Assembly: GCA_042408215.1 (NCBI GenBank)
Contig: JAYFMW010000007.1
Location: forward strand, 160,001 to 224,000
Length of the DNA stretch: 64,000 bases
DNA from: Microcoleus sp.
GTDB lineage: Bacteria; Cyanobacteriota; Cyanobacteriia; Cyanobacteriales; Microcoleaceae
Direction of reading: 5' to 3'
In this document: piece by piece, positions 16,996 to 61,380 of the stretch
How the letters are laid out: each line of letters starts with the position of its first letter
How positions within the stretch are numbered: the first letter of the stretch is position 1
Position numbers and translations under genes: made by a program
The notes under the pieces: model-generated
The model's input: the letters and a program-made list of their open reading frames with translations, nothing else
The model's database searches: none
What the model was told of the DNA's origin: nothing

Positions 16996-17184
16996 TATAC
17001 CAATTTAATGGGTCGTTGCATATATCTCGATCCCCCTCGCATCCCCCTTAATAAGGGAGTAGGGTGTGAGTAGGGGGTGACGAAAGAGCAGAATCTTGTT
17101 CCACACCCCCTACTCCCCTACTCCCCTTATTAAGGGGGGTTAGGGGGGATCAGATTCTATGCAGCCTCATAAAAAACTGGTATT
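16996..17184. mobile_element. MITE-like element containing the CCCCTTAATAAGGGG palindromic repeat
   Basis: Ends TATACCAATTT ... AAACTGGTA; the right part matches modules in the 30.8-32.0 kb array. Confidence 0.6.
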
Positions 17185-18379
17185 AGGAGAGGATGTTTGA
17201 AGGTAGAGAGGTTAAGAAGGTTTTTCCGGCTTGATTTAGGTCGCTATTTAGGGAAAAGGTTAGACTGCGAACTTGGATATCGTCATTTTTTATGTTGAGT
17301 GGCTGTTGGAGGTTTTGCGGGTAGATGAGAATTGCATTTTGGCAGTTTAACGCATTGGCGTAGGCGACTATTTGATGAATGTCATTATTGGCTACTTTAT
17401 CGGGAGCTTTGTATTTTGTATCGAGGACATAGTGGACTTTTTTTGTTGCAATATCGCAGAGGAGTAAGTCAATCCGATCGGAATAATTTTGGTCATGTCT
17501 GACTCGGTGTTGTTGTTTGACAAAAAAGCCTTTTGGTGTATTTGCGTTGAGCCATTCAGCGACAAATTGTTCATATAAATTGGCCATGTTTATCAGAAAA
17601 GGGAGCATTTCGCGATCGCCTGTTTCGTGACTTGGCCCTGTATTCTCCAGAAAGAAGCGACATAAGGCGTGTAAAAGTTGATAATCTTGATTTAAACGGT
17701 GATAATTTCTATCAATACAAGCTTGTGCTGTAAAAGATTTTATGGTAACAACTCCTTGGAGTGTGTGAAAGGCTTTTCGCACCGTCGATGAGACTGATTC
17801 GCCACACAAACCGCTACGGCCAATTATGAATAGTGTCCAAGCCAGAATTTGATTATCTTCGATATCGCCTGTTTGTTCGTTGTAGTGACATTTTAGTTTA
17901 ACATCCCAAGGTTTTTGAAGAGCCGACCGCAAATCGACGCGGCCGCGAATGTAGGCGAGTCTTTCTGTTTTGGATAAGTAATCGCGATATAATCCTTTGC
18001 GACAGCGTTCGAGAATTTTTTGGGCAAGAATGTTAGCTAATCTTTCATAGGCTTGTTCTAAAAATTGGCACTGAATCTGTCCTTGGGGAAATTTTATCTT
18101 AAGTTTGTAGGCATATTCAAGCATTCCGAAGAAGTTGTTTATGGGAACCTTTGGGCGGATGAAAATGTGAAATTCTGGAGTAATTGGAATCTTGCCAACT
18201 ATGCCTTTAGATGTTAATTTCCATTTATTGTTTGTGGTAAAATCGGGACGTTTTATCTCTATTTCTTTGGCATAATTTTGGTGTATTTTCTGTCCTACTG
18301 ATTCGGGAATAAAATCTCGATCAAAGGTTGCTGATTGATATTCGATGAGTTTGATAATTCGGGGTGATTCTGGTTTCAT
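17183..18379 (-). CDS. mcrC: McrC family restriction subunit
   Basis: IRPKVPINN.FGML.YAY, NMANLYEQFV, PD-(D/E)xK-like RIDLLL..VLDTKYK, DIHQIVAYA; directly downstream of mcrB. Confidence 0.9.
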   Translation of the reverse strand: MKPESPRIIKLIEYQSATFDRDFIPESVGQKIHQNYAKEIEIKRPDFTTNNKWKLTSKGIVGKIPITPEFHIFIRPKVPINNFFGMLEYAYKLKIKFPQGQIQCQFLEQAYERLANILAQKILERCRKGLYRDYLSKTERLAYIRGRVDLRSALQKPWDVKLKCHYNEQTGDIEDNQILAWTLFIIGRSGLCGESVSSTVRKAFHTLQGVVTIKSFTAQACIDRNYHRLNQDYQLLHALCRFFLENTGPSHETGDREMLPFLINMANLYEQFVAEWLNANTPKGFFVKQQHRVRHDQNYSDRIDLLLCDIATKKVHYVLDTKYKAPDKVANNDIHQIVAYANALNCQNAILIYPQNLQQPLNIKNDDIQVRSLTFSLNSDLNQAGKTFLTSLPSNILS

Positions 18380-18386
18380 AAGATGA

Positions 18387-20033
18387 TCACTTGCTCAATT
18401 CGTCTTTGATTTTATCCCAGAGAAAATCATCCATTTTTTCCTGATTATCAAAGAAGTATTCTTCGAGGTATGGCTCAATTTCCATTTGCCAAATATCTTG
18501 GATATCTTCAACTAAGGTTTTTGTCAAAAAGAAGGAGATGCCTAGTTCATAGTGTTTGTTGTTAATTGCCCGATTGACATCTTCTAGAATACCAATTAAT
18601 TTATCAACTAGAAAACCTGTTTCCTCTCTCTGGTGATACTGTCGCAGGACTTCATAGTTGGGATAGATGGGGATGAATGCGAAGCGGCGACGGAGTGCGT
18701 TATCGACTAAGGCAATAGAGCGGTCTGCGGTGTTCATTGTGCCGATGATGCGGACATTTGTAGGGATTCTGAATCGTTTGCCGCTGGCTAGTGTAATAAA
18801 GCGTTCAGTGTCTTGTCGGTCATCTAGGAGATACATTAACTCGCCAAAGACTTGAGAGAGATTGGCGCGATTAATTTCATCAATAATGAGAACGCAAGTA
18901 TCTTGACAAGACTCAGCTTTTGTGCAAAAATCGAGGAATCTACCGGGAACTATGGGATAGGTCAATTGGTCATTTTGACTCTGCGGCCGGATGCCTTGAA
19001 TAAAGTCTTCATAAGTATAAGCTGGGTGAAATTGGATTATGTCTGAGAAACCGTCACCGCCACCGATTAAGTGTTTGGCTAGTTTTTGAGCAAGGAAGGT
19101 TTTTCCGGTTCCGGGTGGGCCTTGGATGATGGTTTGGCCTTTGCGGTTAATGGTGCGTATCCAGCCGTTAATTTCAGATGTTTGAAAACCTGTTATTTCA
19201 GAAATTTCTTTGATATCATACTCTCGATTAAATTCTTTCTCATAGATTGAAAAGTATTGCGCGATCAGAGGTGAATCCTTATCCTCCAGATAGGAACACA
19301 AAAAAAATAATGGAAATACTTTTTTAAATGTTTGTGTTATCATGTGAATTAACTGTTGAGCAGAATATCCTAATACTTTTTCTGCTTCAAGCGATCTAGC
19401 AACCTGAATATTAGTAATTTTATATTTTTCAAGTTCTGGTGTTTGTTCGCCAACCAAAGAGATAATACTTTCTAATAATTCATAAATACATTTTTGAGAT
19501 TTCATTATTATCATACGATATTCATGCACAGGGGAAGTAGAACGAATTATTTGCTGAGTTAAATAGCAATGATATTGATTGGGAAGGTTATAACGTTTAA
19601 GGCTATCGATTGCCAATGGGTTATTTATATAATTGCTTTCATAATTATCTATAATACAATCAATATCGTTAAATTCTGCACAGAAACCAAAAGTTAAGTC
19701 TTGGTTGTCAAATCTTAGCATTAAGTAAGCATTCTCTCTATAATTGATATCTTCACAACCAAAAGATATACTGTAAGCTATTGATTGTAAACCTTTTGTT
19801 TCAACGATCGAGCCAAGTTGCTCCCACTTGATATTTATATATTTTTTGATAAAATCAGGTAACAGATATTCCACCTGGATTAAAATATCCTTTAATGGAT
19901 TTTCAACATATTTTAAGAAATCTTTTTTGTGTGCCATGTAAAAATCTGAGCTTGGGTTTTCATAAAATTGTGCCAATAACCTAAATGTGTCTGCTGAAAA
20001 AGGACAGTCAGGATGTACAAAAACTTTTTCCAT
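18387..20033 (-). CDS. mcrB: McrB family AAA+ GTPase with divergent N-terminal recognition region
   Basis: GPPGTGKT, IQFHPAYTYEDFIQG, IIDEINRAN, McrB signature MNTADRS, ALRRRF. Confidence 0.92.
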   Translation of the reverse strand: MEKVFVHPDCPFSADTFRLLAQFYENPSSDFYMAHKKDFLKYVENPLKDILIQVEYLLPDFIKKYINIKWEQLGSIVETKGLQSIAYSISFGCEDINYRENAYLMLRFDNQDLTFGFCAEFNDIDCIIDNYESNYINNPLAIDSLKRYNLPNQYHCYLTQQIIRSTSPVHEYRMIIMKSQKCIYELLESIISLVGEQTPELEKYKITNIQVARSLEAEKVLGYSAQQLIHMITQTFKKVFPLFFLCSYLEDKDSPLIAQYFSIYEKEFNREYDIKEISEITGFQTSEINGWIRTINRKGQTIIQGPPGTGKTFLAQKLAKHLIGGGDGFSDIIQFHPAYTYEDFIQGIRPQSQNDQLTYPIVPGRFLDFCTKAESCQDTCVLIIDEINRANLSQVFGELMYLLDDRQDTERFITLASGKRFRIPTNVRIIGTMNTADRSIALVDNALRRRFAFIPIYPNYEVLRQYHQREETGFLVDKLIGILEDVNRAINNKHYELGISFFLTKTLVEDIQDIWQMEIEPYLEEYFFDNQEKMDDFLWDKIKDELSK

Positions 20034-20425: not shown

Positions 20426-20656
20426 AACTGCTTGGAGGTTCCAGTAATTTACTTCTTCCCAGTAGAGATGATCTACTTCTTCCCACTTCTTCCTACTTCT
20501 TCCTTCGTGTCCTTCGCGTCTTCGCGGTTCAATAATACTAATCCCAACCGTGCCCGGAAAAATCAAACTTGTGTCAAAAGCACCTAAACGTGCTATATTC
20601 CCGTAAACCCTGAACAGCACTTTCAGGTATTGCAAATTTATCAACGAGTCAACTAA

Positions 20657-22309
20657 ATGCCCCCTACTTTCAAGAAACTAGCTGCCATTGCCATCTTTTT
20701 TGTAGCCATAAAAGTTTTAGTTGACTCCCCGTATTTCAAAGAAGCAAAGGATTCGATCGCACACCGAAACCAAGCAAGTGCCACCTTAGACACCGAAAGT
20801 CTGCGCCAAACAGCCACACACCAGCCCCCAGCAGCGCCTCAAACACCACCAGAACGCAACTTTGATATAGTAGTCTATGGCGACGAAGTACCGGGCATAT
20901 GTGCAGCTATTTGGGCCAAGAAAACCCTAGGCGCAAACGGAAAAGTAGCCGTAGTGCGATCGAACCATGAAAGCGCACCTTTAGGCGGCGTACTCACCCG
21001 TGGCGGTTTAGGTTACGTCGATTTAGATAAAATACCCGATTGGTATCGCCAACCCTACGCCCAATGCTTCCGGGAATTCCTAGACAAAGCGAAAGTTCCC
21101 GAATCTTGCTTAGAACCAAAAACGGCAGATAAAGCTCTCAAAGAGATGCTGTCAGAAGCCGATGTTAAAGTTATTTCTAACTCAACACTCACTCCTCACG
21201 TAGTCGATCGTAAAATTGAATATGCCGAAGTAAAAGACAGCAATGTCAAAATTAAAGCTAACTCTTACATTGACGTAACTCAAGACGCCGAACTAGCAAG
21301 AAAAGCCGGATTATCCTATTATACAGGATATGAATCGCAAAATATCAAATCTAAAAATGAAACCTTAGCGATATCTATAGTCCCGACAATTACCGGCCTC
21401 ACGATGTCCGACCTCCGCAGAATAGAAGATGAGATTCTTTCCAACACACCTTTAGTAGAAAAGATTAAATATAGCATTGCCAAATATAAAGATGATGCGA
21501 GTGCAGAATTCTGGATGAGGAATTTCTGGAGCACGATTTATCAAGCCTACAGAGACGGCTACAATATCAGAAGTGTAGCCCTAGGAGCAGCCTATCATGT
21601 AGACAGAAATCTGCCCTTTACTCAAGACAAAGGCTTCTTTTTTGACAAGGCCAATATTTGCGTTCATCAAGATAATTCTCTGTCGTGGAACGGCTTTTTG
21701 TTTAAATATCAAGTTGACCAACTAATGAAGATGGAAGCTAACGACAGAAAGCCGACTCCTGAGATGCTGAAAGAAATGTCATTTCTGCAAGAGTGGCTGC
21801 AAAAAAAATCGGGTAAAGATGTGAGACTATTTATCCCGGATGAGGTTTATATCAGGCAAACTTTGAATATTCGCGATGTCGTAGAACCGCTGACTGGGAA
21901 GGAAATTATTAAAGGAGGAACAGTGCCCGAAAAGTCGATCGGCAGTTTTTCCTATGACTTTGATTTACGAGGCGGAGTCAAGGATTTGTCATCGAGAATT
22001 CCAGGATTGCCCGTGTATAATTTTGGCATAGAAAGTGCATTGGCTAGCAAAGTGAATAATTTGGCGATCGTCGGGCGATCCTCTGGATATGTCGGTATGG
22101 CTGTATCAGTCGGGCGAATTGCGACGGTGAATATTTATCAAGGACAAGGTGTGGGTGTGGCGGCCGGTTTGGCTAGCAAATTGGGAGTACCGCTGAATAC
22201 AATTACTTCGAGTAAAACGAGAGAAACTTTGGAGACTTTGACGGGGAAAACTACTTATTTATCTGGGAGAGATACGAGTTATGGGGTGGATTATCAGGAG
22301 GTGAAATAG
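20657..22309 (+). CDS. FAD-dependent oxidoreductase-like protein with N-terminal signal/membrane anchor
   Basis: FDIVVYGDEVPGICAAI (degenerate Rossmann), LGGVLTRGGL, YIDVTQDAELA..AG, NLAIVGRS, QGQGVGVAA. Confidence 0.75.
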   Translation: MPPTFKKLAAIAIFFVAIKVLVDSPYFKEAKDSIAHRNQASATLDTESLRQTATHQPPAAPQTPPERNFDIVVYGDEVPGICAAIWAKKTLGANGKVAVVRSNHESAPLGGVLTRGGLGYVDLDKIPDWYRQPYAQCFREFLDKAKVPESCLEPKTADKALKEMLSEADVKVISNSTLTPHVVDRKIEYAEVKDSNVKIKANSYIDVTQDAELARKAGLSYYTGYESQNIKSKNETLAISIVPTITGLTMSDLRRIEDEILSNTPLVEKIKYSIAKYKDDASAEFWMRNFWSTIYQAYRDGYNIRSVALGAAYHVDRNLPFTQDKGFFFDKANICVHQDNSLSWNGFLFKYQVDQLMKMEANDRKPTPEMLKEMSFLQEWLQKKSGKDVRLFIPDEVYIRQTLNIRDVVEPLTGKEIIKGGTVPEKSIGSFSYDFDLRGGVKDLSSRIPGLPVYNFGIESALASKVNNLAIVGRSSGYVGMAVSVGRIATVNIYQGQGVGVAAGLASKLGVPLNTITSSKTRETLETLTGKTTYLSGRDTSYGVDYQEVK

Positions 22310-23404
22310 ATCTTAAGAGGATTTTACCGCAGAGAGCGCAGAGGGCGCAGAGAGGGGAGGGATGAAAGGTTTTTTTTACGACATCAAAAACCCTCCCAAA
22401 GCTCTTCCCTCTGCGTCCTCTGGCGCTGGAGCGGTTCAAAACTCTTCTCTTTATGAAGTGGATTATAAAGAAGTGAAATAGATCTTAAGAGGATTTTACC
22501 ACAGAGAGCGCAGAGAGCGCAGAGAGGGGAGGATTGAGAGGGTTTTTTACGACATCAAAAACCCTCCCAAAGCTCTTCCCTCTGCGTCCTCTGGCGCTGG
22601 AGCGGTTCAAAACTCTTCTCTTTATGAAGTGGATGATAAAGAAGTGAAATAGATCTTAAGAGGATTTTACCACAGAGAGCGCAGAGGGCGCAGAGAGGGG
22701 AGGGATGAAAGGTTTTTTTTACGACATCAAAAACCCTCCCAAAACTCTTCCCTCTGCGTCCTCTGGCGCTGGAGCGGTTCAAAACTCTTCTCTTTATGAA
22801 GTGGATTATAAAGAAGTGAAATAGATCTTAAGAGGATTTTACCGCAGAGAGCGCAGAGGGCGCAGAGAGGGGAGGGATGAAAGGTTTTTTTTACGACATC
22901 AAAAACCCTCCCAAAGCTCTTCCCTCTGCGTCCTCTGGCGCTGGAGCGGTTCAAAACTCTTCTCTTTATGAAGTGGATTATAAAGAAGTGAAATAGATCT
23001 TAAGAGGATTTTACCACAGAGAGCGCAGAGAGCGCAGAGAGGGGAGGATTGAGAGGGTTTTTTACGACATCAAAAACCCTCCCAAAGCTCTTCCCTCTGC
23101 GTCCTCTGGCGCTGGAGCGGTTCAAAACTCTTCTCTTTATGAAGTGGATTATAAAGAAGTGAAATAGATCTTAAGAGGATTTTACCACAGAGAGCGCAGA
23201 GGGCGCAGAGAGGGGAGGGATGAAAGGTTTTTTTTACGACATCAAAAACCCTCCCAAAACTCTTCCCTCTGCGTCCTCTGGCGCTGGAGCGGTTCAAAAC
23301 TCTTCTCTTTATGAAGTGGATTATAAAGAAGTGAAATAGATCTTAAGAGGATTTTACCACAGAGAGCGCAGAGGGCGCAGAGAGGGGAGGGTTGAGAGGG
23401 TTTG
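22286..23404. repeat. Tandem array of six 171-172 bp units plus a partial seventh
   Basis: GTGAAATAGATCTTAAGAGG recurs at 22301, 22473, 22644, 22816, 22988, 23159, 23331. Confidence 0.97.
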
Positions 23405-23782
23405 TTAGGAGAGGATGAGGCGGCGGATTCCTTCTCTTAAAAAGCGGACATTAAAGTTGATGAGAAGGGCTAGAGGATAACCAGTCATTTTGAGGTAGGA
23501 GATAACTTGAGCTTCATGGATAGGAAGTAGAGTTTGCACTGACTTTAATTCAACAACGAGAGTCTTGGCAACCAGCATATCGTATCTGCCTTCCCCAACC
23601 AAAACACCTTTGTAAAGGACATTCACCGTAGGCTGAGGGTCAAAAGGAATTCCCCGGCGCGAGAGTTCTTCACGCAACGAATTCTCGTATACCGCTTCCA
23701 AAAACCCCGGCCCCAACTCCTTGTGAACCTCCATCGCCGCGCCAATCACAGCGTAACTCAATTCATTAAGATTCTCTGCCAA
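23405..23782 (-). CDS. GxxExxY family PD-(D/E)xK-like protein
   Basis: VIGAAMEVHKELGPGFLEAVY (GxxExxY), RYDMLV...VVELKSV, HEAQVISYLK, LLINFN; TTG start with AGGAG upstream. Confidence 0.95.
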   Translation of the reverse strand: MAENLNELSYAVIGAAMEVHKELGPGFLEAVYENSLREELSRRGIPFDPQPTVNVLYKGVLVGEGRYDMLVAKTLVVELKSVQTLLPIHEAQVISYLKMTGYPLALLINFNVRFLREGIRRLILS

Positions 23783-23940
23783 CTCTCTTCTCTCCTTTTC
23801 TCAAACCAATAATCACAATCATAATCCAAAACCCTCCGAACACTCTTCCCTCTGCGCCCTCTGCGCCCTCTGCGGTTCAAACCTCTTCTCTTCCCTCACC
23901 TATGGCACAATCTTAATATAAAACCTCCACCCTCTCGCCA

Positions 23941-26718
23941 ATGACCGCAAACCTACCCCCCCAATACGACCCCAAAGCCACCGAAGCCAAATGGCAAAAA
24001 TACTGGGAAGATAACCAAACCTTCAAAGCTGACCCAGAACAAGGCGGCGAACCTTACTGTATCATCATCCCACCTCCCAACGTCACCGGCAGCCTCCACA
24101 TGGGCCACGCTTTCAACAACTCCCTCGTTGACGCACTCATCCGCTATCACCGCATGATTGGTGACAATACCCTCTGTCTCCCCGGAACTGACCACGCTAG
24201 CATCGCAGTTCAAACTATTCTCGAAAAGCAACTCAAAGCTGAAGGTAAAACTCGCGATGATTTAGGAAGAGAAAAGTTCTTGGAACGGGCCTGGAATTGG
24301 AAAGCTGAATCGGGCGGTGCTATTGTTAATCAATTGCAGCGTTTGGGTTTGTCTGCGGATTGGTCGCGGGAACGTTTTACGATGGATGAAGGTTTGTCTA
24401 AATCTGTTTTAGCTGCTTTTGTTCGACTCTACGAAGAAGGGATGATTTATCGTGGCAATTATTTAGTTAATTGGTGTCCAGCTAGTCAGTCTGCTGTCTC
24501 TGATTTGGAAGTAGAAAGTAAGGAAGTTGATGGGAATTTGTGGCACTTTCGCTATCCTTTATCTGACGGTAGCGGTTTTGTGGAGGTGGCGACTACTCGA
24601 CCGGAAACGATGTTGGGTGATACTGGGGTGGCGGTGAATCCCAATGACGATCGCTACAAGCATCTTATCGGTAAAACTCTGACTCTGCCAATTATGAATC
24701 GGGAAATTCCGATTTTTGCTGATGAATTAGTCGATCCAACTTTCGGAACTGGTTGTGTGAAAGTGACTCCAGCCCATGACCCGAATGATTTTGAGATGGG
24801 TAAGCGTCATAATTTGCCGTTTATCAATATCATGAATAAGGACGGCACTTTAAATGAAAATGCGGGTGAGTTTCAAGGACAAGACCGGTTTGTTGCTCGC
24901 AAAAATGTAATTAAGCGGCTAGATTCTGACGGGTTTTTGGTGAAAATAGAGGATTATAAACATACTGTTCCTTTTAGCGATCGCGGAAAAGTTCCGGTAG
25001 AACCCCTATTATCCACTCAGTGGTTTGTCAAAACTCGCCCGATGGCTGACAAGGCTTTGGAATTTCTCGACCAACACAATCAGCCGCAGTTTGTACCTTC
25101 TCGCTGGACTAAGGTTTATCGCGATTGGTTGGTGAAAATTAAAGATTGGTGCATTTCGCGGCAGTTGTGGTGGGGACATCAAATCCCGGCTTGGTATGCT
25201 GTTAGCGAAACCGGTGGCGAAATTACAGATCATACTCCTTTTGTGGTGGCCACAAATGAGGCGGCTGCTAGGGAAAAAGCTTTATCACAATTTGGAGAAA
25301 ATGTCAAGTTAGAACAAGACCCGGATGTTTTGGATACTTGGTTTTCGTCGGGACTTTGGCCGTTTTCGACGATGGGATGGCCGGAGGAAACTGCGGATTT
25401 GGCAAGGTATTATCCTAACAGTACGCTATCGACTGGTTTTGATATCATCTTTTTCTGGGTTGCTAGAATGACGATGATGGCGGGATATTTTACGGATAAA
25501 ATGCCGTTTGAAACTGTGTATATTCACGGTTTGATCTTGGATGAAAATGGTAAAAAACAATCTAAGTCGGCGGGAAATGGTATCGATCCGTTAGTTTTGA
25601 TTGATAAGTATGGTACTGATGCTTTGCGTTATTCGCTGATGCGGGAAACTGCTGGTGCGGGCCAAGATGTCCGTTTGGATTACAACCGGCAATCCCATGA
25701 GTCGGCGACGGTGGAAGCTTCCCGGAATTTCACTAATAAGTTGTGGAATGCTGCGCGGTTTGTGATGATGAATTTGGCGGGACAAACTCCGCAGCAATTG
25801 GGGAATCCTTACCCCCCCCAGCCCCCCGTAGGGGCGGTGCCCCCGTGCCCGCCCTCTAAGAGGGGGAGTGAAGAGGGGTTGGAATTGTGCGATCGCTGGA
25901 TTCTTTCTCGCTATTATCAAGTTGTACAGCAAAGTCGTAATGATTTTGAAAGTTACGCTTTGGGGGAAGCGGCGAAGGGACTTTATGAGTTTATCTGGGG
26001 CGATTTTTGTGACTGGTATATTGAGTTAGTCAAGTCTCGCTTACAACAGGATGCTGAACCTAATTCTAAGAAAGCGGCACAGCAAACTTTTGCTTTTGTT
26101 TTGGAAGGTATTCTGAAACTTTTGCATCCTTTTATGCCGCACATTACTGAGGAAATTTGGCACACTCTGACTCAAAAAGGTGAGGATGAATGTCTGGCTT
26201 TGCAAGCTTATCCTGAAGCGGATATATCGCTGATTGCTCCTGATTTAGAACAGCAGTTTGAGTTGTTATTTGGCACGATTCGGACTATTCGCAATTTGCG
26301 GGCTGATACTGATATTAAGCCGGGAGTTAAGGTGACGGCGTTTTTGCAAAGCGAAAGCGCAAAAGAACGCGAAATTATCTCAAATGGAGCCATTTACATT
26401 AAAGATTTGGCTAGGGTGGAAAATCTGACGATTACTGCTAGTTTGGATGCAGATTTAGGACAGACAATTGCTGGGGTTGTGGGTACTGTGCAAGTATTGA
26501 TTCCTCTGGCTGGGGTGGTTGATCTGGTGGCTTTGCGTGCTAAATTGGAGAAAAAATTGGGCAAGGTTGAAGGGGAAATTAAGCATACTTCGGCGCGTTT
26601 GGCGAATCAGAAGTTTGTGGAAAAAGCTGACCCGGAAGTTGTTCAGGTGGCGCGGGATGGTTTGGCGGAGGCGGAGAAACAGGCGGAAATTTTGCGCGAT
26701 CGACTAAAGTTGTTTTAA
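23941..26718 (+). CDS. valS: Valine--tRNA ligase
   Basis: [53 protein letters not shown]-terminal coiled coil. Confidence 0.98.
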
Positions 26719-35557: not shown

Positions 35558-35648
35558 TGAAGGAAGTTCGGCAACGGATTCTGTAACGGATGTAACGGAT
35601 GTAACGGATGTTTGGCAACGGATTTTGTAACGGATTTAACGGATGTTA
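35558..35648. repeat. AACGGAT-family repeat (GGAAGTTCGGCAACGGATT..GTAACGGAT)
   Basis: Same family occurs as an inverted pair at 41740-42010. Confidence 0.8.
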
Positions 35649-41739: not shown

Positions 41740-42010
41740 AAGGAAGAAGGAAGTTCGGCAACGGATTTTGTAACGGATTTAACGGATGTAAGAAAGAAGC
41801 AAGAGAACTGATTGTAATTGTAAGATATAGCACGGCTCTTTTCCTGCTAATACAAAATCCGTTGCCGAACTTCCCTCATCCATCTGTTACATCCACTACA
41901 TCCGTTACATCCATTAAATTCATTGCCGAACTTCCCTCATCCATCCATCCATCCATCTGTTATATCCGTTAAATCCGTTACAAAATCCGTTGCCGAACTT
42001 CTTCCTTCTC
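41740..42010. repeat. Inverted AACGGAT-family repeat element in the dnaK-dnaJ spacer
   Basis: GGAAGTTCGGCAACGGATTTTGTAACGGATTTAACGGAT and reverse-complement copies at 41855-41875 and 41963-42008. Confidence 0.85.
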
Positions 42011-46842: not shown

Positions 46843-47029
46843 TATTTAACAGTATTAAGACTTACGCATAGGGACTCCAGAAACCGGGTTTTTTACTGAG
46901 AAGACGCGTTACCAACCACAAATTTAGTAAAAAACCCGGTTTCTTTGGTCGAAATGCGTCCAGGACTAAAATATTCATCTCTCTCCTCTCTTCCTCTGCG
47001 CCCTCTGCGCCCTCTGCGGTTAAAAAAAC

Positions 47030-61275: not shown

Positions 61276-61380
61276 ATATCGTTTCCGGTTGCATCGGAAT
61301 GATTTAACCGCAGAGGGCGCAGAGGGCGCAGAGGGAGAGAAGAGAGAGATGAATAATTCCGATGCTACCGGATTTGATAT
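61276..61380. mobile_element. MITE-like element enclosing a CGCAGAGGG arm
   Basis: ATATC..TCCGGTTGCATCGGAAT ... ATTCCGATGCTACCGGATTTGATAT inverted ends. Confidence 0.65.

Follow-up and report, generated by a model that had tools for sequence, protein, structure and literature searches.

A GxxExxY gene between periodic inverted arms and the tandem array of its gene-less units in a Microcoleus genome

Why should a small gene of the GxxExxY family stand at the end of a row of units that repeat its flanking arms and hold no gene? Could the arms be what its protein acts on, or does the gene merely lie where repeats abound? The locus that raises these questions lies in a window of 64,000 nucleotides (nt) from Microcoleus sp. 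(GenBank assembly GCA_042408215.1, contig JAYFMW010000007.1, positions 160,001 to 224,000 of the forward strand; positions given below without a contig name count from the first letter of this window), between a gene for a flavin adenine dinucleotide (FAD)-dependent oxidoreductase and valS. The explanation that we regard as probable, if well short of certain, is that a nuclease gene resides between its arms, that the array arose by duplication of this cassette and deletion of the gene, and that the nuclease, as we predict, recognises the words of the arms and promotes their amplification and spread.

The array and its gene-filled unit

Tandem Repeats Finder places a tandem array at 22279-23403, with a period of 172, 6.6 copies, 95% matches and a score of 2075. 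Alignment of the units resolves it into six gene-less units of 171-172 bp each, which together span 22279-23308, and a seventh, gene-filled unit at 23309-23891, as the original prediction had described. All are read on the plus strand; the gene-less ones lie at 22279-22450 (unit 1), 22451-22621 (unit 2, 171 bp), 22622-22793 (unit 3), 22794-22965 (unit 4), 22966-23136 (unit 5) and 23137-23308 (unit 6).

Each gene-less unit consists, in this order, of a copy of the 3' end of the oxidoreductase gene, a spacer, a left arm, a core and a right arm. The oxidoreductase gene (20657-22309, plus strand; an open reading frame (ORF) matching PF12831, E = 2e-34) provides the template of the unit heads with its last 31 nt, the TAG stop included. 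Its genuine end, 22279-22309, is at the same time the head of unit 1, and five positions separate the copied ends from it. The copied stretch, first put at about 40 nt, is real, but it comprises 31 nt of coding sequence followed by a spacer of 17 nt, ATCTTAAGAGGATTTTA. The left arm (35 nt, purine-rich; 22327-22361 in unit 1) reads CC(G/A)CAGAGAGCGCAGAG(G/A)GCGCAGAGAGGGGAGG and is made of CGCAGAG(R)G words. The core, GGT(6-8)ACGACATCAAAAACC, is assigned to 22368-22392 in unit 1, and the right arm of 60 nt, which terminates in GCGGTTCAAAACTCTTCTCT, to 22391-22450.

Unit 7 opens with the same head (copied gene end at 23309-23339) and a left arm at 23357-23391 (plus strand), CCACAGAGAGCGCAGAGGGCGCAGAGAGGGGAGGG, which flanks the GxxExxY gene on its 3' side. 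The gene itself, an ORF on the minus strand (23405-23782), occupies the position of the core. Beyond it, on its 5' side, the right arm reappears as had been claimed, but at 23832-23891 (plus strand) and not at 23828-23892. Read directly from the sequence, this arm is better preserved than those of the gene-less units, with three perfect CCCTCTGCG words at 23848-23874 and then GTTCAAACCTCTTCTCT. The conserved right-hand neighbour of the site is valS (ORF, 23941-26718, plus strand).

No difference separates unit 2 from unit 5; there is one between units 3 and 6, and there are five between units 1 and 4, all of them in the copied gene end. Because the units pair up in this manner, the latest growth step was the copying of a block of three units (515 bp). 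The hairpin of one unit (unit 2) has a folding energy of -30.1 kcal/mol, compared with a mean of -18.75 for shuffled sequences (z = -3.97), and none of 200 shuffles equalled it.

The GxxExxY gene encodes 125 amino acids (aa), begins with TTG and has intact motifs. Its product matches PF13366 over residues 7-121 (E = 1.9e-40; 138.3 bits, cut-off 22) and TIGR04256 (E = 3.5e-40; 137 bits, cut-off 35). The name-giving motif, G26-E29-Y32, is present together with D68, E78 and K80. All six residues are invariant in an alignment of ten sequences; in a larger alignment, of 68 sequences, G26, Y32, D68 and E78 are still invariant, and E29 and K80 are conserved in at least 90%. The AF2 model of the protein (pLDDT 96.4) finds lambda exonuclease, Cas4 and Hjc as its top Foldseek matches (E ~1e-3), and the 50 best entries of a wide VIA search are without exception PD-(D/E)xK nucleases, with Z of 5.2-7.7. 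A search of PDB sequences with the profile of ten sequences gave no match. As modelled, then, the fold of the window protein is that of a PD-(D/E)xK nuclease without a closer solved relative. The genome (7.36 Mb in 30 contigs) has a single copy of the window-type gene, one other clear GxxExxY member on contig C8 and one weak match.

Two side observations concern the gene-less units. Minus-strand ORFs of 62-75 aa run through them; one that was tested has no Pfam family, and we have taken these frames as by-products of the repeat, not as genes. The right arm of the gene-less units has an odd variant, CTCTGGCGCTGGAGCGGTT (for instance at 22391-22450), which recurs in the loops of two 105-bp elements (C30:590031 and C30:346668), and related variants, CTCTGACGCGGATGCGGTT, occupy the oxidoreductase-valS site in relatives. 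This recurrence suggests either exchange between arms of different loci or a shared footprint.

Arms around GxxExxY genes and across genomes

Are such arms peculiar to this locus? The original prediction expected them around other GxxExxY genes. We scored inverted repeats by local alignment of the left flank with the reverse complement of the right flank, with 1,497 small ORFs and 1,500 random intervals of this genome as controls. The window locus scores 63, the 99th percentile of the controls being 24. Among relatives, 41 genomes gave 29 scorable homologue loci with 98% to 38% identity. In 25 of these the score exceeds the control percentile; the 29 loci fall into about nine independent lineages, seven of which have the repeat. 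A wider search, seeded with an alignment of five sequences, supplied 80 loci from Cyanobacteria, Planctomycetota, Chloroflexota, Verrucomicrobiota, Acidobacteriota, Myxococcota, Bacteroidota and other phyla. Scores above 30 occur in 63 of these 80, and in none of 294 controls shifted by 600-900 bp within the same loci. Two of the 80 homologues, L058:1501-1863 and L087:1501-1854, have one in-frame stop codon each and were omitted from the alignment; they are possibly pseudogenes.

The architecture of the arms is constant. Each has two to four words (most often three) at a spacing of 8-9 nt, lies about 21 nt from its end of the ORF, and has GAAC, TCAC or TAAC before the outermost word. The word itself varies with the lineage of the GxxExxY gene, and both arms change in step. 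It is CGCAGAG for the window type and CGCGAAG for a paralogue of 60% identity; CACAGAG, CACAAAG, CGCAAAG, CGCCAAG and CACGGAG occur in other lineages. The arm-gene-arm layout is thus a general, conserved unit tied to GxxExxY genes.

In the 60%-identity paralogue (L030:1444-1878 and others) no stop codon interrupts the reading frame within the 5' arm, whose outer end has an ATG (as the reverse complement of GGTTCAT). Read from this ATG, the L030 protein has 144 aa, and the 5' arm may encode a charged N-terminal extension.

Does the word follow the protein? We compared residues with word letters in 67 proteins, de-duplicated at 85% identity, and ran 200 permutations. Letter 5 of the word (G or A) follows residue 9: threonine goes with G in 30 of 30 cases, alanine with A in 13 of 13, and serine is mixed (mutual information 0.607, permutation maximum 0.427). 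Letter 4 follows residue 6, with asparagine and A in 32 proteins and aspartate and C in eight (0.681 versus 0.562). Residues 6 and 9 are located in the N-terminal helix of the AF2 model, and residues 6, 9 and 10 of this helix are candidate readers of the word. The same pairs predict a swap of specificity: T or A at residue 9 would call for G or A at letter 5, and N or D at residue 6 for A or C at letter 4.

The repeat is not confined to the site. In a blind survey of the whole genome for 6-mers repeated three times at 8-9 nt spacing, the periodic families CTCTGCG (128), ATCCGT/ACGGAT (81) and CTTCGCG (26) rank highest. The first two are the families found beside the genome's two GxxExxY genes: 23 bp separate the window gene from a CTCTGCG arm, and 34 bp separate the C8 gene from an ACGGAT arm; a distance of at most 100 bp has a chance probability of 0.022 and 0.014, respectively. 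The C8 gene (C8:152309-152870) has a C-terminal extension of about 60 aa. Downstream of it (C8:152885-153945) come one forward ACGGAT arm and then 18 tandem reverse-arm units of about 55 bp, with the next gene directly after. Each of the two GxxExxY genes therefore adjoins a local array of its own repeat.

Perfect triple CTCTGCG arms number 123 in the genome; a loose definition yields 320, of which 306 are extragenic, that is, outside crude gene calls. The orientation of arms relative to these gene calls has a modest bias, 115 to 75 when the co-directional rows are summed by hand, which is inflated by the arrays and to which we attach no meaning. Inward-facing arm pairs 0.6-3 kb apart outnumber outward-facing ones, 13 versus 5; we do not read them as brackets of cargo, as they enclose ordinary housekeeping genes.

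Is the number of arms related to the presence of the gene? Of the 61 genomes of the genus that were searched, 23 have the window-type gene (identity of 85% or more). All 61 have perfect triple CTCTGCG arms, with a median of 55 in genomes with the gene (n = 23) and of 36 in those without it (n = 37). For CTTCGYG arms the medians are 23 with the cognate 60%-identity paralogue (n = 27) and 5 without it (n = 32). The cross-comparisons of an arm family with the non-cognate gene are weaker than the cognate ones. Phylogenetically independent pairs, taken from a neighbour-gene tree, agree in direction by about 4.1 to 0.1 and 4.7 to 0.

Further members of the arm families are scattered over the window. 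A solo CTCTGCG-family arm lies at 46994-47018 (plus strand). Another, at 61309-61333, forms part of the loop of a palindromic element of 105 bp, ATATCAAATCCGG ... CCGGAAACGATAT, at 61276-61380 (minus strand; G000:C7:221276-221380), to which four other copies in the genome are 100% identical. The window also has arms like those of the C8 gene (ACGGAT/ATCCGT family), at 35586-35644 and 41773-41978. The arm scan also returned a solo CTTCGCG-family arm at 20503-20526 (plus strand), with CTACTTCTTC repeats before it (20473-20530); the cognate 60%-identity paralogue was not found in this genome and is present in its two nearest sampled relatives. Elsewhere, at C8:273134-274513, ten tandem gene-less CTCTGCG hairpin units of alternately 133 and 156 bp follow right after the stop codon of a gene, with no GxxExxY gene nearby. 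Just upstream of the oxidoreductase gene, at 17183-20033 on the minus strand, lies a McrBC-type restriction pair, McrC (PF10117, E = 5.6e-44) and an AAA_5 McrB-like ATPase.

Duplication and deletion at the oxidoreductase-valS site

How did the array come about? In relatives, 30 loci were anchored on the end of the oxidoreductase gene, valS serving as a further anchor. The GxxExxY gene is present in 12 of them and absent from a complete interval in 11; seven belong to neither class, one of these having the gene 3.2 kb further on. Gene-free intervals are variable. That of G063 measures 111 bp, others contain a DUF29-like gene or small toxin-antitoxin-like genes (DUF29-like ORFs and/or small toxin-antitoxin-like ORFs in L115, L118, L124, L127 and L140), and a remnant of the right arm is frequently kept before the valS promoter. 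On a neighbour-gene tree with 24 scored rows, presence or absence of the gene at this site changes at least eight times. The site is a hot spot of small-gene replacement.

The number of gene-less units varies just as much. It ranges from 0 to 6 among relatives (none in G005, one in G008, five in the one-contig genome G076) and is six in this genome; some genomes have gene-less units on both sides of the gene. Intermediates are preserved as well. In G024, G006 and G060 a unit retains the 3' end of the gene, its 5' end or both between the arms, and in a near-identical strain a contig joins 23433 to 23820, the body of the gene having been removed. The duplicated piece of the oxidoreductase gene begins at the window equivalent of 22279 here, at about 22194 in the near-identical strain and in G024/G006, and at 22130 and 22091 in G059 and G046. 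With at least four different duplication junctions, several independent duplications must have taken place. The locus of the 60%-identity paralogue behaves likewise, with extra units at nine of 13 loci and gene remnants in five of those nine.

Much of the original prediction stands up to this comparison. The gene-less units do derive from a gene-filled one, as the retained gene ends and the 23433-23820 joint testify; the interval is highly polymorphic between strains, in unit number and in presence of the gene; and no Y1 transposase gene accompanies the arms, since all 16 Y1 (IS200/RAYT-type) transposase matches of the genome are more than 1.3 kb away from each of the three families. Two of its proposals are not supported. 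It had read the six units as insertions comparable to miniature inverted-repeat transposable elements (MITEs), amplified with target sequence; the copied three-unit block, the at least four junctions and the range of 0-6 copies fit local tandem duplication and unequal crossing-over instead. It had also taken the gene-bearing unit to be mobile, but all 23 window-type genes in the 61 genomes stand beside the same oxidoreductase gene, and no target-site duplication is seen. Judging from these sequence comparisons, the array most likely owes its origin not to transposition but to tandem duplication on the spot, combined with loss of the gene from inside the units and with unequal crossing-over. 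In its behaviour the gene is a sessile, single-copy, frequently lost resident and is not transposon-like.

The following course of events would account for the locus. The cassette would have been duplicated in tandem together with the end of the upstream oxidoreductase gene; the gene would then have been deleted from all copies but one, after which unequal crossing-over would alter the number of units. Breaks or stalled forks at the arms may cause the recurrent duplications. If the nuclease recognises the words of its own arms, it could both multiply the arms locally and disperse them over the genome, in the way thought to hold for RAYTs and REPINs, and the dispersed gene-less arms would depend on it. 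Arm binding or cutting by the GxxExxY protein is a putative activity.

Several observations weigh against this explanation. At the site itself, the cassette borders show no target-site duplication, there is no clean pair of empty and filled alleles, and the 111-bp 'empty' interval of G063 differs from filled alleles by replacement and not by simple insertion. The six empty units that adjoin the gene stay unfilled, and since the gene keeps to one locus in 23 of 23 genomes, no transposition of it is seen. The fold matches of the protein are generic to the superfamily (E ~1e-3, Z < 8). A phylogeny-aware test of the residue-word association leaves just one or two pairs on supported branches, which makes the association a lead only. 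Taken singly, the paired tests of arm count against gene presence do not reach significance (median p 0.125 and 0.0625). A search of G003 found 85 perfect triple arms but, at E <= 1e-8, no GxxExxY match, and the 36 CTTCGYG arms of the present genome likewise lack a cognate gene; from G003 and the 37 genomes that lack the window-type gene it follows that arms persist, and may spread, in the absence of a cognate gene. Dispersed CTCTGCG arms are mainly solo and not inverted hairpin doublets: 121 of the 320 are single arms in the loop of the 105-bp palindromic element, 83 stand in same-orientation arrays, and close inward-facing pairs are few outside two arrays. The 105-bp element has sharp ends and 130 copies in the genome, ten of them at 98% identity or more and five identical, and no target duplication is evident at it; it may be moved by another enzyme.

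Could the arms, then, be old, host-wide extragenic repeats that spread by other means, such as the 105-bp element or recombination, or that serve the host, for instance at transcript ends, the gene having merely come to rest in a repeat-rich hot spot with no enzymatic relation to them? The presence of arms in all 61 genomes irrespective of the gene, the case of G003, the extragenic position of 306 of 320 arms and the transport of 121 of them by a recently active element would suit this proposal, as would the DUF29-like or toxin-antitoxin-like small genes that fill the hot spot in other species and the inward arm pairs, 1-2.6 kb apart, around ordinary housekeeping genes. Against it stand the inverted arms found in 63 of 80 cross-phylum loci and in none of the 294 controls, the variation of the word with the lineage of the gene, the position of the genome's top two periodic families beside its two GxxExxY genes, each with a local array, and the stronger link of arm counts to the cognate gene than to the other. 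On balance we judge it unlikely, and take it more seriously than any of the alternatives below.

A role of the arms in RNA appears to us improbable. Stems across the GxxExxY mRNA, or in the 3' untranslated region (UTR) of the oxidoreductase, would control processing, stability or translation, and the array would be a structured 3' UTR. The units fold as hairpins, the arms lie about 21 nt from both ends of the ORF, the frame of the L030 paralogue is open through the 5' arm, and REPs have been proposed to affect mRNA (PMC3733652). Yet arms that pair in mRNA should show more mismatches of the G-U type than of the A-C type on the coding strand, and in 65 de-duplicated loci there is no strand bias, with 128 G-T and 120 A-C arm mismatches (p = 0.66). 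No Rfam family fits the hairpins, which resemble miRNA precursors only far below threshold. A promoter and terminator scan of 22200-24000 found nothing that would place both arms in one transcript; its two promoter-like sites, against 1.1 expected, are not informative. The dispersed solo arms and the co-variation with protein residues would also be left unexplained.

We doubt still more that the gene is of the homing endonuclease type and has moved into hairpin repeats that were there before it, with the arms as target and homology and the gene-less units as empty sites. The gene takes exactly the place of a unit core, and its presence at the site changes at least eight times on the neighbour-gene tree. 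But the six adjoining empty units are unfilled, a genome holds a single gene copy for each lineage, the locus is shared by 23 of 23 genomes, and units that keep both gene ends speak for deletion, not insertion. That assembly made an array out of a single unit is scarcely credible: copy number was checked on short-read contigs alone, which break at every unit, cover the array patchily in all four DNA runs and in no case span it, but read depth over the unit contig is about four times that of single-copy flanks in the two runs that match the flanks exactly (43.6 versus ~10 and 36.9 versus ~9), three unit variants recur in an ordered three-unit block, and independent assemblies of relatives hold arrays of other lengths.

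Relation to known systems and significance

If duplication, gene deletion and a nuclease acting on its own arms describe the locus correctly, what does it resemble? The closest known system is that of the repetitive extragenic palindromes (REPs), whose hairpin doublets (REPINs) are associated with the tyrosine transposases called RAYTs. These systems, also termed REPtrons, are described from Proteobacteria and some cyanobacteria (Bertels & Rainey 2011, PMC3116915; Di Nocera et al. 2013, PMC3733652), with tandem REPIN clusters that include flanking sequence adjoining each RAYT gene and with a repeat flavour for each enzyme gene (PMC3116915; PMC3733652). The likeness is extensive. In both, a single-copy, vertically kept enzyme gene stands at one locus between inverted copies of a repeat, tandem repeat clusters with flanks adjoin it, and tens to hundreds of copies of the repeat are scattered over extragenic DNA; the flavour of the repeat is specific to the enzyme lineage, and the gene is frequently lost while the repeats stay. 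Membership fails on two points, the enzyme family and the doublet organisation of the dispersed copies. The enzyme here has 125 aa and a PD-(D/E)xK fold and is not an HUH Y1 transposase, the 16 Y1 genes of the genome all lying more than 1.3 kb from the arms, and the dispersed copies are mostly solo or in the loop of another palindrome and not inverted doublets. The arms differ too, being built of two to four short words at 8-9 nt spacing, whereas a REP is a single palindrome with a GTAG tag.

Resemblance to other systems is more partial. Like TIRtrons, which are tyrosine transposase genes with long terminal inverted repeats (PMC3733652), the cassette brackets a small gene, and some of the repeats belong to dispersed families; unlike them, it has an enzyme of another family, and periodic arm words are not among the TIRtron features in the accessible sections of that description (PMC3733652). 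Homing endonuclease genes spread into empty cognate sites, which the GxxExxY gene, with one copy per genome at one locus, does not. MITEs (listed in PMC3733652) derive from DNA transposons by deletion and are non-autonomous; the gene-less units, too, are internal-deletion derivatives with inverted ends, and there are intermediates that keep both gene ends. The units differ from MITEs in having neither a classical transposase nor a target-site duplication and in forming a tandem row at the parental site, where MITEs occupy new ones. Bacterial interspersed mosaic elements (BIMEs) of E. coli form arrays of tandem, alternating REP pairs, which are similar in being hairpin-forming extragenic repeat pairs in tandem between genes; the units here hold in addition a copy of the upstream gene end and adjoin a cognate nuclease gene. 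In the intervening sequences of 23S rRNA an ORF lies within a hairpin, and in this a small ORF inside a long inverted repeat is common to both; the present site is not in rRNA, the protein belongs to another family, and the strand bias of an RNA stem is missing.

A 2012 survey of the PD-(D/E)xK superfamily listed PF13366 with function 'Unknown' and 'multiple transfers' (PMC3424549), and PMC8934634, in the sections accessible, mentions the GxxExxY/PDDEXK_3 family incidentally. We found no paper linking this family (PF13366, TIGR04256) to repeats in the literature covered, which did not extend to subscription journals.

The window is a good entry point to the question because it offers a natural allelic series at one site: no cassette, the cassette alone, the cassette with one to six gene-less units, units with gene remnants, and at least four independent junctions. 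The second pair of gene and array in the same genome, on contig C8, provides a control within the cell. More broadly, GxxExxY proteins might be the enzyme half of a second nuclease-repeat partnership, based on the PD-(D/E)xK fold and present in more than ten phyla, in which a lineage-specific 7-nt word at 8-9 nt spacing would be read by residues 6, 9 and 10, the gene would be sessile, arms would be amplified in tandem beside it, and from there they would be seeded genome-wide. We advance this wider reading tentatively and put its chances slightly below even. If it is true, a widespread family would gain a concrete, testable DNA substrate, and the REPIN/RAYT way of life, in which a sessile enzyme gene tends short repeats, would have arisen also around a nuclease of unrelated fold. 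For a large family whose function is unknown, the DNA target would then be defined, and its members would act as long-lived genomic replicators.

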